Shown in pieces: positions 1-6,781 of a stretch of DNA of 27,117 bases. The stretch is from a virus. Its lineage: Duplodnaviria; Heunggongvirae; Uroviricota; Caudoviricetes. The stretch's first letter is position 1. Each line of letters starts with the position of its first letter. The DNA lies in IMG/VR virus record IMGVR_UViG_2693429719_000003; one strand, given 5' to 3'. The notes beneath the pieces are model-generated. The model made no database searches, was not told where the DNA came from, and was given only the letters and a program-made list of their open reading frames with translations. The translations under genes and the position numbers were made by a program.

Positions 1-405
1 ATGGATCAGGTCGTTGTTTTTCAAAAGATGTTTGAGCAAGTGAGAAAAGAGCAAAACTTCTCCTGGTTTTATTCAGAATTAAAACATCACCGTATTGCAC
101 ATTACATTTATTATCTGGCTACGGATAACATCAGAATTATTACTCACGATGACACGGTTTTGTTATTAAGAGGAACCAGGAACCTGTTAAAAGTTAGTAC
201 GACCAAGAACCCAGCTAAAATAAAAGAGGCCGCATTGCTTCATATTCGCGGAAAATCTACATTTCGGGAATACTGTTCAACACTGGCAGGCGCTGGCGTT
301 TTCCGGTGGGTTACTGATGTTAATCATAACAAACGCAGTTACTACGCCATTGATAATACGCTTTTATATATTGAAGATGTAGAAAATAATAAACCATTAA
401 TCTAG
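1..405 (+). CDS. DUF1398-family protein (YcgX/YdfO/YbcV-like), host chromosome flank
   Basis: 134-aa ORF starting at base 1; the sequence (MDQVVVFQKMF...YYLATDN...AGVFRWVT) matches my recollection of the E. coli DUF1398 family. In K-12 the DUF1398 gene ycgX lies just outside the icdC end of prophage e14, the same arrangement as here. Confidence 0.75.
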   Translation: MDQVVVFQKMFEQVRKEQNFSWFYSELKHHRIAHYIYYLATDNIRIITHDDTVLLLRGTRNLLKVSTTKNPAKIKEAALLHIRGKSTFREYCSTLAGAGVFRWVTDVNHNKRSYYAIDNTLLYIEDVENNKPLI

Positions 406-612
406 CTAAAGTTGGGAGCTTAAAAAATGCTTCATAATTCAGTAAGGCATTAGCATAATGGAAATAAAAGTGCAGAGACTATCCCTATGGATGATTAATA
501 CTGTCTTTTTATTGCTCCCCATAAATAATCACCAGACCAATACGATCAAATTGATATTTGAAATGTGTTCACTTGACTTTTGATACGTTATTTTATAACG
601 GTTAACATATTT

Positions 613-643
613 ATAAAAACAACGGGCGTGTTATACGCCCGTT
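613..643 (-). terminator. rho-independent terminator downstream of the icd 3' fragment
   Basis: Perfect 9-bp stem AACGGGCGT (621-629) / ACGCCCGTT (635-643) with a 5-nt loop; on the minus strand it is followed by GTTTTT (615-620) and lies about 25 nt past the icd stop codon. Confidence 0.6.
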
Positions 644-666
644 ATAATATTTAACACATGTGGTAA

Positions 667-831
667 TTACATATTTTTGATGATCGCGTCACCAAACTCG
701 CTGCATTTCAGCAGGTTAGCGCCTTCCATCAGACGTTCGAAGTCATAGGTTACGGTCTTGGCGTTGATTGCGCCTTCCATACCTTTAACAATCAGGTCTG
801 CGGCTTCAGTCCAGCCCATATGGCGTAACAG
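667..831 (-). pseudogene. icd: icd 3'-terminal fragment (about 54 codons, isocitrate dehydrogenase C-terminus); attachment-site duplication marking the prophage/host junction
   Basis: Minus-strand translation [53 protein letters not shown], stop at 667-669. This matches the Icd C-terminus; homology stops abruptly upstream (ILL instead of MML) and no icd body is present. Phage 21 and e14 integrate in icd and duplicate this segment. Confidence 0.85.
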
Positions 832-1020
832 TATATAAAAACCATGAATTCAAGTCATTGATATTTAATGATAAAAATTATTTTATTGTCTTTTTATTAG
901 CCAAAATAAACTTTATTCAACCGTTTGATTTCATTGACGTTCGTTTATATTTTGGGGAAAGGTTTTCTCTACCATTTATATCCAAATTACAAGTCTACAT
1001 TTTATTAACATCTCAATACA

Positions 1021-1051
1021 TGTGAGGCCTTGTAGACCTTTGTGAGGCCTT
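1021..1051. promoter_or_regulatory. direct repeat TGTGAGGCCTT x2 (20-bp periodicity), candidate integrase arm-type sites
   Basis: Identical 11-mers at 1021-1031 and 1041-1051, about 190 bp on the phage side of the icd core homology. An IHF-consensus match (AATCAAACGGTTG, minus strand, 918-930) lies in the AT-rich stretch between. Confidence 0.3.
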
Positions 1052-1314
1052 ATGTGTCTCAGTTTTGTCCCACCTTGTATTACGACTTGCATAGCCAATG
1101 AAGATAAATGTGACGACAAACGGCGCAGCAGTCTTCTTTTCCTTCATACTTTCCCCACCCAGCATGCATACCTTCTACCATAACTGTAGTGAATGTCTGT
1201 TATGAGCGAGTAGCGGAAGTTAGGGCTACAAGATGACTAATTAAGTTGCGGTAATTAAGTACAGGTTATGGACTTCCTGATCACGATGCCTTCTAACTCG
1301 TCAGTAGCTGGCTA

Positions 1315-1606
1315 AGAATTGATAACCAGGTAAGCAATTGTGTCTCTCGTGGAGCTTTTAAGCGGGATGCTAACGGATTTAACCCGCTTACTGACGCAGG
1401 AATAATCCGGACAGCGAAGCGGGAGATTCATCATGGTGGAAATGGCAAGTTCAGAATAACCTTGCGGGCCCCCCGCGAAGCAGTTTTTGGTTTGTCGTAC
1501 CATGACTGAATGGTCGACTCATCAAGCCGGAATGTCAGTGAACCACGATTGACGAGCGCCTTGTTGTAGGTGTTCCAGTTGGTGATTTTTAGCTTTTTTT
1601 TGCCAT
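1315..1606 (-). pseudogene. IS903-type transposase, 5' fragment, frameshifted and truncated
   Basis: ATG at 1604-1606 (minus strand) is followed by an A8 homopolymer (T-run 1594-1601 on plus) that shifts the frame after the MAK start. The two fragments appear as ORFs 1431..1658 and 1312..1503 in different frames; only about the first 115 codons are present. Confidence 0.8.
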
Positions 1607-1682
1607 GAGATACTGCTACAAGACCGTAATGTGGTGATCTGATCCTGATATCTGCCAAAAGTTCGATTTATTCAACATAGCC
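1315..1682 (-). mobile_element. IS903-group (IS5 family) insertion sequence remnant: left terminal inverted repeat plus 5' part of the transposase gene, truncated
   Basis: Minus-strand end sequence GGCTATGTTGAATAAATCGAACTTTTGG (1655-1682) matches the IS903 terminal inverted repeat as I recall it (GGCTTTGTTGAATAAATCGAACTTTTG). The downstream ORF fragments (KKKLKITNWNTYNKALVNRGSLTF...; ...MNLPLRCPDYSCVSKRVKSV...) match the IS903 transposase N-terminus. Homology ends near 1315. Confidence 0.85.
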
Positions 1683-1784
1683 CTTTCCAGTTGTAATCCT
1701 TATACAAAAGTTCATCTTTGGCTATATCAGTCTTAAAAATCCCAGTATATTATTTGCCAAACAACACCGGTCTTATAAGGACAT

Positions 1785-1808
1785 GCCCGTGCCCGTGCCC
1801 GTGCCCGG
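1785..1808. repeat. hexanucleotide tandem repeat GCCCGT x3 plus GCCCGG
   Basis: gcccgtgcccgtgcccgtgcccgg read directly in the sequence; a GC-rich microsatellite in an AT-rich region about 70 bp upstream of ORF A. Confidence 0.9.
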
Positions 1809-1817
1809 CTTAATCAT

Positions 1818-1843
1818 TTGACTAAAATCTCAAAATGTATACT
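1818..1843 (+). promoter_or_regulatory. candidate sigma70 promoter for cargo ORF A
   Basis: TTGACT (1818-1823) and a TG-TATACT extended-10-like element (1836-1843); the spacer is short (14 nt), so the call is weak. An AAGGAA Shine-Dalgarno follows at 1862-1867. Confidence 0.3.
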
Positions 1844-1874
1844 GAATAAACACTCTATCTAAAGGAAATTATCA

Positions 1875-2384
1875 GTGAAAGCATCCGATTGGATTCAACA
1901 AAACATACGACACTCAGCACAACTGGAACCTAATACACTCGAAGCAGTATCCGACTTCACTCTTATGTGGTCGATTTTTGAGGCTTCAGAAGCTCATAAT
2001 GAGAATGTTGTAGAGCAGATTGGGGTTCTTTCAAAGCGAGTCGCAAGGGATATGCCATCAGATGCGATCGACTCCCAGTTATCATATTGGTCTAAACGCT
2101 ATATACATGAAAGCGGTGAACCAACAGAGCATTTCAATTACCTCTATTTTAGAGAACTTTCACAAACTGTGAAATCACTTAACGTACTAAGAAATGAAGA
2201 AACTTCTTTTGAAGATAAAATCGAAGTGTGCCTCTTAATTGTCTATAGGTATCGAAATAATTTATTTCACGGTATCAAAGATATCACGTTGCTAAATGCA
2301 CAGGTAGAAAATCTTCGGAACGCAATAGAATTATTACAAATAATTATGCCATATAGCGGGAGATACCTTTTTCTCGGGGCCTAA
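1875..2384 (+). CDS. hypothetical 169-aa protein with an Rx4H (RNNLFH) HEPN-like motif; cargo gene A
   Basis: ORF with GTG start preceded by AAGGAA 7 nt upstream; AT-rich. Motif R127-N-N-L-F-H132 fits the HEPN Rx4-6H signature in a small, apparently helical protein. No recognisable homology beyond that. Confidence 0.7.
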   Translation: MKASDWIQQNIRHSAQLEPNTLEAVSDFTLMWSIFEASEAHNENVVEQIGVLSKRVARDMPSDAIDSQLSYWSKRYIHESGEPTEHFNYLYFRELSQTVKSLNVLRNEETSFEDKIEVCLLIVYRYRNNLFHGIKDITLLNAQVENLRNAIELLQIIMPYSGRYLFLGA

Positions 2385-2404
2385 TTAGCTATATGAAGCA
2401 GTGG

Positions 2405-2434
2405 AGTCTATTTCAATTATAATCTAAATAGACT
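2405..2434 (+). other. stem-loop downstream of ORF A (possible weak terminator)
   Basis: Perfect 9-bp inverted repeat AGTCTATTT (2405-2413) / AAATAGACT (2426-2434) with a 12-nt loop; the downstream T-run is poor. Confidence 0.25.
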
Positions 2435-2752
2435 CACTTCCATTGGTGTTTTGAATTGGTCGATGGGTTTTGTTATGGCTGTCCAATATGAGCGAAGAGC
2501 AGATTGTGTGGTTCAATACAGAATCACGATCCTTTATTAAGATAAGATTCAGCGATAAAGAAGGTTTTTATATTTTAATTTATAAGAAGAATTTTTGTTG
2601 TGCGCCTATACAAATAATTAATTTTATAGTAATGAGTTTCTCAATGACTTATCAAAGTGAAAATCATTCTGGAATGAGGCTAAAAGCGACGCGGAATTAA
2701 AAAAGCTTTCATCTTTGAAATATTGAAGTATTTCCCTCTCTATATCACTAGA

Positions 2753-2778
2753 CTGACAATAACTAAAGAGCTATAATG
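2753..2778 (+). promoter_or_regulatory. candidate promoter for cargo ORF B (consensus -10 TATAAT)
   Basis: Perfect TATAAT at 2773-2778, 32 nt upstream of the ATG; only a weak -35-like CTGACA at 2753-2758 with a short spacer. Confidence 0.3.
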
Positions 2779-2809
2779 CAATTATTTCAAATTATTAAAG
2801 GGTGGGGGT

Positions 2810-4045
2810 ATGAATAGCACGTTAAAAGAACTTGAGAGAAATTGCGCGCCAATAGATTTTATTGACCCATTGGCTCGATTGGTCTTAGATGATTTAGCTA
2901 TGTGGGCAAATGATAATATATACTCAAAACAATCTGGGTGTTTAACTTATGAATTGCCTCTTGATGGAAACATCAATGCAGCGTGTATAAGTTATCATGA
3001 CTCACGCTATCGAACCCATATTAAAATAAACCTGGGAATGGTTCAGGAAATCTACATCCAGTCATTTACCTATCCAGGTTACATTAAATATCTAGAAAGT
3101 GGAAATTGGCATTTCAACGCTCTTGATGAACCCTTTAGTGATGCTGAATTTTTATTCGAAGGTGGCATCCCTCCAAGAGTTAACGCGTCTGACACGGTCA
3201 CTCATATGGTAGAGCTATACAAAAGCATTCCTAACAACAGCAATACCATGTGGACTGATGAAGAATTAATTTGCCGTTTTGCCATGTTCGAATTAATGAT
3301 TGCGTGGATATTTTTTCATGAACTTGCGCATCACGTACAAGGGCACTACAAGATCAAAGGTGAAATAAAAGAATCGGCTACTTATTACGAATTAGATTAC
3401 TCAAGCAACATTAATAATTCCAATCCTGAGGTAACTCCCAGCGTCATCCAAAAGAACATTGACCAGCATGCCCGAGAGATACTTGCAGACCTCGAAGGTA
3501 TGTATTTAACACTCAGAATGATGGTGAGGAATGACACATTAACACCACCTAACACGTTTTTGCTTTTATATGTCCAAACCTCAATGTTTAATGTATTCTA
3601 TAAATTATCTGAGGGAAAGTATGCGGAGTTAGATAGCGTTAAAGTTTCTCACCCCCACCCTGTAATTAGAAACAAATTCGTACACGCCCTGTATGTTTCT
3701 GTGATGAAATGGGAATTGGATAATGATATATACCAAGATTATCGTCACTCTGTTAGCCGAGGTCTTGAATATTATACTGTAAAGTCATCATTGTTAGCTG
3801 GAATGATATGGGCAATGAGACAACCTGATTACAGTCCAGATGTAATGCCCCAATTTCTTAAATTTAGTGATGAGACCGAGCATGCCGCAGATTATAACTA
3901 TCTCAGGGAATTGACCTTAAGCGCTGAAAGGCAATCATCTATCATATCACTCATGCATATCATCGATGATGACTCAGATAATATTTTTAAATTAACAAAA
4001 TTAGACAAGCTATTCACTCATTTTTTAAATGTTAATGAAGAATAA
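2810..4045 (+). CDS. hypothetical 411-aa protein with an HExxH zinc-metallopeptidase motif (FFHELAHHVQGH); cargo gene B
   Basis: Long AT-rich ORF with a G-rich RBS (GGGTGGGGG) directly upstream of the ATG. HELAH at residues 170-174 with further His at 175 and 179 and acidic residues 40-60 aa downstream, resembling ImmA/IrrE (M78)-type or gluzincin motifs. The rest of the protein is unrecognised. Confidence 0.85.
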   Translation: MNSTLKELERNCAPIDFIDPLARLVLDDLAMWANDNIYSKQSGCLTYELPLDGNINAACISYHDSRYRTHIKINLGMVQEIYIQSFTYPGYIKYLESGNWHFNALDEPFSDAEFLFEGGIPPRVNASDTVTHMVELYKSIPNNSNTMWTDEELICRFAMFELMIAWIFFHELAHHVQGHYKIKGEIKESATYYELDYSSNINNSNPEVTPSVIQKNIDQHAREILADLEGMYLTLRMMVRNDTLTPPNTFLLLYVQTSMFNVFYKLSEGKYAELDSVKVSHPHPVIRNKFVHALYVSVMKWELDNDIYQDYRHSVSRGLEYYTVKSSLLAGMIWAMRQPDYSPDVMPQFLKFSDETEHAADYNYLRELTLSAERQSSIISLMHIIDDDSDNIFKLTKLDKLFTHFLNVNEE

Positions 4046-4272
4046 GATACGATGATTAGTGTTCAATTTCACCAGGGATCTGAACACCTGTCATTTGTAC
4101 AGGGCACTGTTACAGTCCTGACAACCCTAGAGTTTAATCAACTCATAGATCTCTAACTCATCACCGACTTAATGTTTATATAGCGGAATGAGCTTTCCAT
4201 GTCAGATATAACAATGTCCGCTTCTGGCACATAGCAGCCCTAGAGACAGTGGCGTAAAGTCATGGAGGACCG

Positions 4273-4581: not shown

Positions 4582-5784
4582 ATGTCTCTTCGTTTCAGAC
4601 AAACCTTTACTCTATTTCCTGGCGTTCGACTCAACATTGGCAAGCGTGGAATAAGTGCAAGCATTGGCGTGCCTGGCGCAACTGTCAATGTTGGTAAAAA
4701 AGGGGTTAGAGCAACTGTCGGATTACCGGGCACAGGCTTATCTTATACTACACCTACCTTGCCCTATGATGATGGATACTCAGTTACCAATCCATTAAAT
4801 CCAGCCCCTACAGAACCTCATTTGGAGTCTGGGTCATCTCCAGAAAACACACCATCGAACGCTAAAATATATATGCCTGTAGCTGGCATGAATGAAATAT
4901 CCAGCGCTTCGGTAGAAGTCCTTACAAGTACCTCCCTTTTACCTTTACGAGATTTGATTGCTAAAGCACGAGAACAAAGAGCAGAGATAAAAGCAGATCT
5001 TCAAGAGGCTCTTGCCGAAGAATCAAAACAAAAAAGCGAGCTGGCTCGACGCAAATCAAGTCTATTCCGTTGGTTTTACAAACGACGCATCGCAGAACTT
5101 GAGACACTACTCCCCCTAACCCAAGCTGAGATATCTCGCCTAGTTTCATGGGAAGACAGCACAAAAATAGCCATAACATTCGAGAGCAGTGATGCTTCAC
5201 AGCGCGCATATGCAGCGATGGTCCATGCATTTGATATGTTAAAATCGAGTGTCAAAAAATGGGATATTACTGCAGATAAAGCTACAGACCAGTTTGCTGA
5301 AAGAACATTAGCAACCCGGTCTGTTAATCGTCACCCAGTTACCTTTGATTTTAGTTCAACGGATCTCATTCAATTTACAGGGCGTGCGATGAGGTTTGAA
5401 AATGTAAATGGAGACGATATTTTGCTTTATCCTGGAGTTGCAGTCATACCACGAGCTGATGGAGCATTCGCTCTGATTGATTTACGCGAATTACAAATTA
5501 GTTCAGAATATCTAAGATTCCATGAGGAAGAAGGTGTTCCCAGTGACTCACGCATAGATGGTTATACATGGGCGAAAACGAATAAGAATGGCTCACCAGA
5601 CCGTCGTTTTAAAGACAACTACCAAATCCCTATTTGCATTTATGGAAATATTACTTTCCATTCTCAAACAGGGGTAACTGAAGAATATATGGTATCAAAT
5701 GCAGATGCCGCGCACGCCTTTGCTGAGGCAGTAAAACGCTATCAGATTTCACTCACAGAAACAGAAGCGTTGGTACAAGCCTGA
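4582..5784 (+). CDS. hypothetical 400-aa protein: DUF4236-like N-terminus, central coiled coil, uncharacterised C-terminal domain; cargo gene C
   Basis: N-terminus RFRQTFTLFPGVRLNIGKRGISASIGVPGATVNVGKKGVRATVGLPGTGLSY matches the DUF4236 motif as I recall it. Residues about 120-175 are Lys/Glu/Ala-rich and heptad-like (coiled coil). The C-terminal 220 aa or so are unknown. Confidence 0.85.
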   Translation: MSLRFRQTFTLFPGVRLNIGKRGISASIGVPGATVNVGKKGVRATVGLPGTGLSYTTPTLPYDDGYSVTNPLNPAPTEPHLESGSSPENTPSNAKIYMPVAGMNEISSASVEVLTSTSLLPLRDLIAKAREQRAEIKADLQEALAEESKQKSELARRKSSLFRWFYKRRIAELETLLPLTQAEISRLVSWEDSTKIAITFESSDASQRAYAAMVHAFDMLKSSVKKWDITADKATDQFAERTLATRSVNRHPVTFDFSSTDLIQFTGRAMRFENVNGDDILLYPGVAVIPRADGAFALIDLRELQISSEYLRFHEEEGVPSDSRIDGYTWAKTNKNGSPDRRFKDNYQIPICIYGNITFHSQTGVTEEYMVSNADAAHAFAEAVKRYQISLTETEALVQA

Positions 5785-5912: not shown

Positions 5913-5992
5913 CGGATAGAACTGTTCAGGCTACTCAATCCTTTTTAAGTACAAATGAACAGATAGAAATAGTTATATTGCAAGGAGCTATC

Positions 5993-6781
5993 ATGCACAC
6001 TGAGTATATATGGCGATACCTTGACATAGAGAAATTCTCTATGTTACTCGAACAAAATGCTTTATTTTTTTGCTCAGCAAAAAATTTTGAAGATCCGTTC
6101 GAAGGTGAATTTGCTTGGGGACATACTGGCTATAAAAAATTCATTGAGACACAGGAAAAACTATGCGCTACTCATGGTGCCGGCATGGACTTAGATCCTT
6201 TCATGGCATTCAATTTAAAGACACTTAAGGAAATAAGCGAGAGGACATATATAAGTTGCTGGCATTGTAACGAACATGAATCTGAAGCTATGTGGAAGCT
6301 GTATTGTAAAAATCCCGCTAAAGGCGTTGTCATAAAATCAAAGAAAAAAAACCTCCAAAGCCAACTTGAAAATAATAATTTAAACAAACTACAATTAAAA
6401 CACGTAAAATACGTAAAAAATTTCTGGATAAAACAATACAATCCAGAATCAGATGTATTCTTTAACAAGAGACCATCTTTCGAATACGAAAAAGAGTTTA
6501 GAGCTATTTTTCAAGAGAATACCTTTAACACTCCACCTGTAAAGGGAAAACTAGTCCCTGTATCTCTTAACAATCTGTTGGAAGAAATAAGGATTTCACC
6601 TTTCGCAGATAAGGATTTCAAAAATGAAGTTTTACAAATTTCAAAAAAATATGGACTAGATCTAAAAGTCAAAAACTCTGAAATTGAAATGCATCCCATC
6701 ATGCATGTTGAGGAAGAAATAATTGCAGAAGGCCCCAATTGGTATCAGTCAAAAATCAGATTGGCAATACGTGATGCTTAA
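5993..6781 (+). CDS. hypothetical 262-aa protein, DUF2971-like N-terminal motif; cargo gene D
   Basis: ATG at 5993 with a consensus AAGGAG Shine-Dalgarno at 5983-5988 (the ORF track's TTG at 5978 is an upstream in-frame extension). N-terminal YIWRYLDIEKFSMLLEQNALFFCSAKNFEDPFEG resembles the DUF2971 signature. Very AT-rich. Confidence 0.8.
   Translation: MHTEYIWRYLDIEKFSMLLEQNALFFCSAKNFEDPFEGEFAWGHTGYKKFIETQEKLCATHGAGMDLDPFMAFNLKTLKEISERTYISCWHCNEHESEAMWKLYCKNPAKGVVIKSKKKNLQSQLENNNLNKLQLKHVKYVKNFWIKQYNPESDVFFNKRPSFEYEKEFRAIFQENTFNTPPVKGKLVPVSLNNLLEEIRISPFADKDFKNEVLQISKKYGLDLKVKNSEIEMHPIMHVEEEIIAEGPNWYQSKIRLAIRDA

Follow-up and report, generated by a model that had tools for sequence, protein, structure and literature searches.

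The 368 bp at positions 1315-1682 (minus strand) of the stretch analysed here, 27,117 nucleotides in all and referred to below as the window, are with a probability of about 0.9 a dead relic of an IS903-group element, of which the left ~40% is preserved, and this fossil arrived already broken as a passenger in a mobile cassette. The parts of this fragment on which the argument rests are the following.

1315..1682, minus strand: IS903-group 5′ remnant, IS positions 1 to ~443 minus 72 bp (blastn).
1665..1682, minus strand: left terminal inverted repeat, GGCTATGTTGAATAAATC, 17/18 against the IS903 repeat.
1628/1627, minus strand: loss of 1 bp in the leader.
1606-1604, minus strand: ATG start codon of the transposase.
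1594..1601, minus strand: A8 run, frameshift 1 (alignment to relatives).
1469..1474, minus strand: G run, frameshift 2; one base that intact relatives have is missing.
1434..1435, minus strand: in-frame internal deletion of 72 bp (24 codons), with its junction between TGATG direct repeats (alignments).
1315..1321, minus strand: point of truncation, where the 307-aa transposase is cut at residue 121-122 (alignments).

By its matches, window 1315-1682 (minus strand) is the 5′ remnant of an insertion sequence of the IS903 group (IS5 family). In blastn searches window 1682-1435 (minus strand) aligned with positions 1-251 of a complete element on Rahnella aceris pPlas1 at 84% identity (E = 2e-72), and window 1445-1321 (minus strand) aligned with positions 313-437 of the same element at 79% identity (E = 3e-26). 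Both pieces of the remnant open reading frame match NCBIfam NF033579 (4e-7 and 5e-6) and the Pfam family DDE_Tnp_1_5, the NF033579 scores being below the full-length cut-off, as expected for fragments. Once both frameshifts had been mended, the resulting 98-aa translation aligned to residues 1-122 of the Rahnella transposase with an E value of 1e-49 and to residues 1-122 of the IS903B transposase with an E value of 3e-42; over the surviving positions its amino acid identity is 79% to the Rahnella protein and 65% to that of IS903B. In a near-identical E. coli genome the stretch carries the RefSeq label of a frameshifted, incomplete transposase. The first-pass annotation had described a decayed IS903-group element, and the blastn alignments, the end repeat and the NF033579 and DDE_Tnp_1_5 matches bear this out. 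It had also called the terminal inverted repeat intact, which is right as to its presence, though the repeat is not perfect: it agrees at 17 of 18 positions with the reference repeat GGCTTTGTTGAATAAATC that is common to IS903B and the Rahnella and pEQ2 elements. In the Pectobacterium copy of the remnant the end repeat matches at 18/18. The 18-bp repeat is present as a single copy in the 27-kb window, where 0.03 would be expected by chance.

The Rahnella element (NZ_CP067058.1; transposase WP_200227402.1), an unnamed member of the IS903 group, is the best full-length relative. It is 1055 bp long, its 18-bp repeats are perfect and it has a target duplication of 9 bp; a 93.8%-identical copy of it is carried by the E. 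coli plasmid pEQ2. Complete relatives are 1055-1057 bp in length, with identical 18-bp end repeats and 9-bp target duplications. At 84% and 79% nucleotide identity over two blocks the Rahnella element is too distant to be the parent. No closer parent was found in complete E. coli genomes, in 72,556 plasmids or among 5.8 billion proteins. At the protein level the relatives of the remnant are mostly from Serratia, and the remnant has its origin in a lineage of the IS903 group that is near to the ones on Yersiniaceae plasmids. With IS903 and IS903B it has in common the 18-bp repeat, a homologous transposase N-terminus and a 76-bp leader ahead of the start codon. It differs from them in being a 368-bp fragment as against a full element of 1057 bp, in a nucleotide identity of 73-76% (the range for IS903B) and in the absence of one end and of the catalytic domain, with two frameshifts and 24 codons deleted.

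The A8 run lies at codons 3-5, in agreement with the earlier claim of a frameshift in the first few codons. At this position the relatives read AAAACAAA, that is GGCAAAACAAA(A/C)G, and the frame in the window yields MAKKS followed by a premature stop at 1591-1589. Three further lesions had been missed, namely the frameshift in the G run, the 72-bp internal deletion, which takes out transposase residues 59-82, and the 1-bp loss in the leader. The truncation had been placed after about 115 codons at around 1315, which is close; the alignments put it at residue 121-122, with homology ending between 1321 and 1315. Only about 98 codons' worth of the transposase survives. Past the cut 612 bp are missing, the right end repeat included, and residues 123-307 of the transposase are absent. 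No piece of IS positions 444-1055 was found anywhere in the 27-kb window, and no second end repeat was found there within 3 mismatches. With two frameshifts, the 24-codon deletion and the cut at residue 121-122, the reading frame of the DDE catalytic domain is not intact, and what is left is a fragment, not a two-repeat element of ~1055-1057 bp. The 9 bp outside the surviving end (1683-1691) read ACTGGAAAG and have no partner, since one end remains. Having one end repeat and no transposase, the fragment therefore cannot move. Adjacent deletions made by a transposase begin at the end of the element and leave the element whole. The loss of the right ~60%, with the second end repeat, was not the work of the element's own transposase, because the lesion removed the element's own end.

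The fragment sits within a lambdoid prophage, in a segment whose contents vary between strains. The features of this locus are listed here.

668..835, minus strand: displaced icd 3′ end, the prophage attachment site (ORF translation; RefSeq annotation of the near-identical SC418 locus).
1195..1217, plus strand: boundary site X, GTCTGTTATGAGCGAGTAGCGGA, 0 mismatches; left edge of the variable region.
1218..1314, no strand: the 97 bp between the boundary site and the IS cut, which move with the cassette (conserved with the remnant in other genera).
1784..1807, plus strand: tandem repeat (TGCCCG)4, located after the IS end and ahead of the 169-aa gene (locus comparison).
1875..2384, plus strand: 169-aa gene, the companion of the remnant; a homolog is named Apea-like HEPN domain protein by one source.
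2481..2503, plus strand: degenerate site X between cassettes A and B, 3 mismatches.
2810..4045, plus strand: 411-aa gene with a zinc-protease-like motif, FFHELAHH; its matches to Lit, a phage exclusion protease, are weak.
4099..4199, minus strand: decayed 3′ part of a gene for a ~200-aa tyrosine recombinase; its identity to the 3′ ends of plasmid-borne 603-bp integrase genes is 80-82%.
4217..4239, minus strand: boundary site Y, GGCTGCTATGTGCCAGAAGCGGA, 3 mismatches; right edge, where homology with sister prophages resumes.

The chromosomal gene ycgX occupies window 1-405, and the prophage is entered from its tail-fibre end after the icd remnant. Between ycgX and the icd remnant (window 406-666) iraM and ymgK are absent, both being present in SC418 and in many strains; the complete genome Z1323PEC0014 has the same iraM-less arrangement at 97.5%. 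Window 600-1320 is covered to at least 80% in more than 1000 complete E. coli genomes, and window 616-1223 is 94-97.5% identical to the loci of sister prophages. Window 1224-4213 forms a 3-kb variable segment, in place of which other strains have unrelated genes, and from 4214 onward the backbone (the DUF4236 and DUF2971 genes and tail-fibre assembly) is shared at 99.4%. The sequences of sister prophages that carry other cargo part from the window at 1217-1223 and rejoin it at 4214; for two of them, L005 and L006, homology stops at site X (1195-1217). The backbone genes adjoining the variable segment are the DUF4236 gene at 4582-5784 (plus strand) and the DUF2971 gene at 5978-6781 (plus strand), and the DUF2971 protein matches the candidate defence family PDC-S31 (E = 1e-20). 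The fragment had been described as lying at the inner edge of the cargo; it is in fact at the att-proximal edge, 97 bp inside it. Those 97 bp (1218-1314) are missing from sister prophages with other cargo and show no similarity to the 3′ part of the IS. The edge of the hotspot is the conserved 23-bp recombination-type site at 1195-1217, which sister prophages with unrelated sets of cargo have in common, rather than the IS.

The remnant and the 169-aa gene together make up what we call cassette A. No Pfam match was obtained for the 169-aa protein, and its match to PADLOC PD-T4-5 is weak; in E. coli SC418 the product of the gene is only 112 aa. The tandem repeat, 68-91 bp upstream of the gene, has four copies of TGCCCG here, 2, 3 or 6 in E. 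coli loci that are nearly identical in other respects and essentially one in Pectobacterium, and its copy number could alter expression of the gene. Around the G run of the remnant there is a hairpin (1462-1478, plus strand) with a T run behind it, which points towards the gene. The exact 169-aa and 411-aa proteins are each found in more than 100 indexed blocks of the assembly collection, where all the loci inspected are from E. coli and have the same arrangement. Across 13 E. coli assemblies the remnant shows one SNP, despite differences in the chromosomal flank (with or without iraM) and in the tail-fibre genes.

Outside Escherichia, the region from window 1191/1195 to 2470/2496 was recovered as a single alignment block in a Pectobacterium integrative element (92.6% nucleotide identity), in P4-like satellites from Enterobacteriaceae and from Citrobacter (~87%) and also in Proteus sp. 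FME41. In Pectobacterium, Enterobacteriaceae, Citrobacter and Proteus alike, the cut, ~120 bp past the cut and the 72-bp deletion are linked to the 169-aa gene. Every aligned copy has the same cut, together with the 72-bp and leader deletions and an A run that lacks the C; the length of the A run is 6 to 8 among sister copies and that of the G run varies too. The Proteus copy (L059 3539-3846) keeps the cut junction and has three extra internal deletions, which remove the end repeat, with the gene intact. In one Enterobacteriaceae chromosome (L047, 3593-4704) homology begins only at 1650, right after an rve-family (IS3-like) transposase gene that takes the place of the missing part of the remnant, which may be read as a later insertion into the remnant. 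Searches with the cargo (1683-4213) in the phage collection and with the 169-aa gene in viral contigs returned nothing useful, and the species-representative genomes held a single extra 169-aa locus, in Proteus. Since the same scar and its flanking DNA are present in other genera, the damage would predate arrival at the icd prophage, and the fragment would hold no record of local remodelling in this prophage; since the lesions are shared, the insertion, the truncation and the internal deletion would each have happened once, in the ancestral cassette.

The history could accordingly be sketched as a short series of steps. A complete element would have inserted upstream of the 169-aa HEPN-like gene in an ancestral cassette of ~1.3 kb, with its left end towards the gene. 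A deletion, made by something other than its own transposase, would then have removed the right 612 bp along with some of the flanking DNA, and a 72-bp slippage deletion and the homopolymer frameshifts would have come after it. The cassette, scar included, would have spread as a unit into unrelated mobile elements of at least five genera, and the icd-adjacent cargo hotspot of this lambdoid prophage would be one of its destinations. What the data show directly is the identity of the fragment, its lesions, a junction common to several genera and a rate of divergence close to neutral, whereas the order of the steps and the way in which the cassette travelled are inferred. The same holds for the insertion and the first deletion themselves, since neither a pre-insertion allele of the cassette nor a full-length one was found.

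The remnant may instead have been co-opted to control the HEPN-like gene, for example by acting as a terminator or an insulator, by providing a promoter region or through an antisense RNA. Such a role would be in keeping with the fact that all copies examined, from at least five genera, have the remnant ahead of the gene, and with the terminator-like hairpin at 1462-1478 (plus strand), which arises from changes specific to the remnant; that the fragment has persisted unpurged through 8-13% divergence likewise leaves some room for a retained role. The remnant is, however, 87-94% identical between copies, as against 87.5-94% for intergenic DNA, and the third codon positions of the 169-aa gene differ at 15-25 of 170 sites between copies. 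Diverging about as fast as third codon positions, the remnant looks like neutral baggage. Moreover, its homopolymer lengths vary freely among copies, the 169-aa gene is intact in Proteus even though three internal pieces of the remnant and its end repeat are gone there, window 800-2000 gave no Rfam match, and counts of promoters and terminators are no higher than in shuffled sequence. We therefore regard co-option as quite improbable, and the remnant was probably not retained for a function. Least credible of all, and very improbable, is the history proposed in the first-pass annotation, in which the IS inserted in this hotspot and an IS-linked deletion took the DNA up to att: the fragment does lie close to the edge of the cargo that faces att, with about 480 bp between it and the icd remnant, and is cut on the att side, but the junction at 1315, compared with related loci as that annotation had suggested, is identical in Pectobacterium, the satellites and Proteus, in elements of other genera that have the same flanking DNA and no icd attachment site, so that the damage is older than the arrival; between the cut and the prophage backbone there are a further 97 bp of cassette DNA as well as a conserved boundary site; and the element lost its own end, which an adjacent deletion by a transposase does not bring about.

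With the fragment taken as a passenger that arrived pre-broken, the shared scar directs attention away from the IS and to the short sites at the boundaries. A pattern search with the 23-bp motif GTCYGYTNTGAGCGANNAGCGGA, an imperfect palindrome, gave 3 occurrences in the window against 0.01 expected. Site X has the form GTCCGCT-NTGAGCGAN-NAGCGGA and site Y, on the other strand, the form GTCCGCT-NTGTGCCAN-NAGCGGA, so that the two share the same 7-bp inverted arms around different centres (TGAGCGA in X and TGTGCCA in Y). Cassettes are framed by X and Y on opposite strands, and adjacent cassettes are joined by Y, 18 bp and X; across genera there are 13 distinct junctions of this kind, and in all of them the starts of the two sites are 41 bp apart. 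When loci with the same backbone and different cargo were compared with loci with the same cargo and a different backbone, the switch points fell inside the sites. Of 5426 complete E. coli genomes, 1037 contain the 70-bp junction, at roughly one copy each, and none of the 40 records listed annotates it. The contexts of the junctions sampled include the P2-like tail hotspot, lambdoid prophages and islands, and in another an AAA-ATPase/DUF4435 pair lies beside a UvrD-helicase/ATP-dependent-nuclease pair that is Gabija-like by inspection.

Several known kinds of repeat were considered for these sites. A high-copy repeat of the REP or BIME type is ruled out by the occurrence of the motifs about once per genome. 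They are not attC sites either: there are no conserved GTTRRRY boxes, and the bases after X differ between cassettes. To our knowledge the boundary sites are not Xer/dif, shufflon or invertase sites.

The 3′ recombinase remnant at 4099-4199, close to site Y, has intact counterparts in other loci (L063 3420-4022, L028 2530-3132, L062 3857-4459, L056 9126-9728, L058 9782-10384 and L044 4531-5139). In six loci the recombinase gene lies within 3 kb of the sites, and its flanks follow the same plan in 6/6, with a Y-type site after the stop codon and an X-type site ahead of the start, at fixed distances. On inspection of the translations, the catalytic residues of the motif (R, K, HxxR, H and Y) are kept. 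The ~200-aa recombinase falls below every NCBIfam family cut-off. It lies far below those for XerC, XerD and integron integrases, so that the combination of IntI and attC that defines an integron is not present. A FimB/FimE-type invertase was likewise rejected, the matches being weak and far below the cut-off.

It is possible, and we put this forward tentatively, that X and Y are related but distinct core-type sites, both of them substrates of the ~200-aa recombinase, and that what is seen here is a natural form of recombinase-mediated cassette exchange operating at many Enterobacterales hotspots. The suggestion is prompted by the presence of sites at 3/3 boundaries, by the 13 junctions, by the position of the switch points and by the placement of the recombinase between Y and X. 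If it is true, defence-type genes and the scars they carry as passengers move in this way among prophages, satellites, integrative elements and plasmids. The pdif modules of Acinetobacter plasmids and the cassettes of integrons are comparable systems, in which small gene modules bounded by short imperfect palindromic sites occur in many unrelated replicons and are associated with a tyrosine recombinase. The present sites differ from those in being unlike dif and in having no attC GTTRRRY boxes, and the recombinase here is only ~200 aa.

The neighbouring cassette B behaves as a separate unit. Homology of cassette A to other genera stops at 2470-2496, and that of cassette B begins at 2474-2481. 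The module of the 411-aa gene (window ~2474-4230, ~1.75 kb) is found alone, without the remnant, in Enterobacter, Leclercia, Serratia and Sodalis at 84-88% nucleotide identity. Its surroundings there include BREX-type helicase genes in Serratia, a SIR2 gene in Leclercia and the replication region of a lambdoid prophage in Enterobacter.

The sites themselves are not new, the repeats having been noticed in P2-like phages in 2004. In AJ512683.1, the Z-region of P2-EC58, the annotated "left inverted repeat" ends in the Y motif with 0 mismatches and the annotated "right inverted repeat" begins with the X motif with 2 mismatches. We take this record, which as shown names no authors, to be the deposit of Nilsson et al. 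2004. The relevant part of a review of the 2004 work states that the inverted repeats enable site-specific exchange of fun (PMC8987985). The motifs are thus the same as those at the inner ends of the P2 Z/fun repeats; the difference is that here they frame the cargo of a lambdoid prophage integrated at icd and not that of a P2-like phage. In a 2026 survey of P2/P4 hotspots the way in which exchange with other mobile elements takes place is still given as unknown, and transposable elements are reported to be almost absent from these hotspots (PMC13586616). The motif sequence itself was not found in the literature searched. As far as we have checked, the proposed link to the recombinase and the apparent use of the sites in an icd lambdoid prophage, an integrative element and plasmids are undescribed.

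In itself the fragment is ordinary, another dead insertion sequence. Its value is as a lineage marker. An identical scar, tied to the same gene in Escherichia, Pectobacterium, Citrobacter, other Enterobacteriaceae and Proteus, shows that lambdoid prophage, integrative element and P4-like satellites have exchanged a cargo unit of 1.3 kb as a whole. The recent literature leaves open by what means defence genes pass from one mobile element to an unrelated one, and if the boundary sites and the recombinase are active, they would offer a concrete and testable answer to this question.
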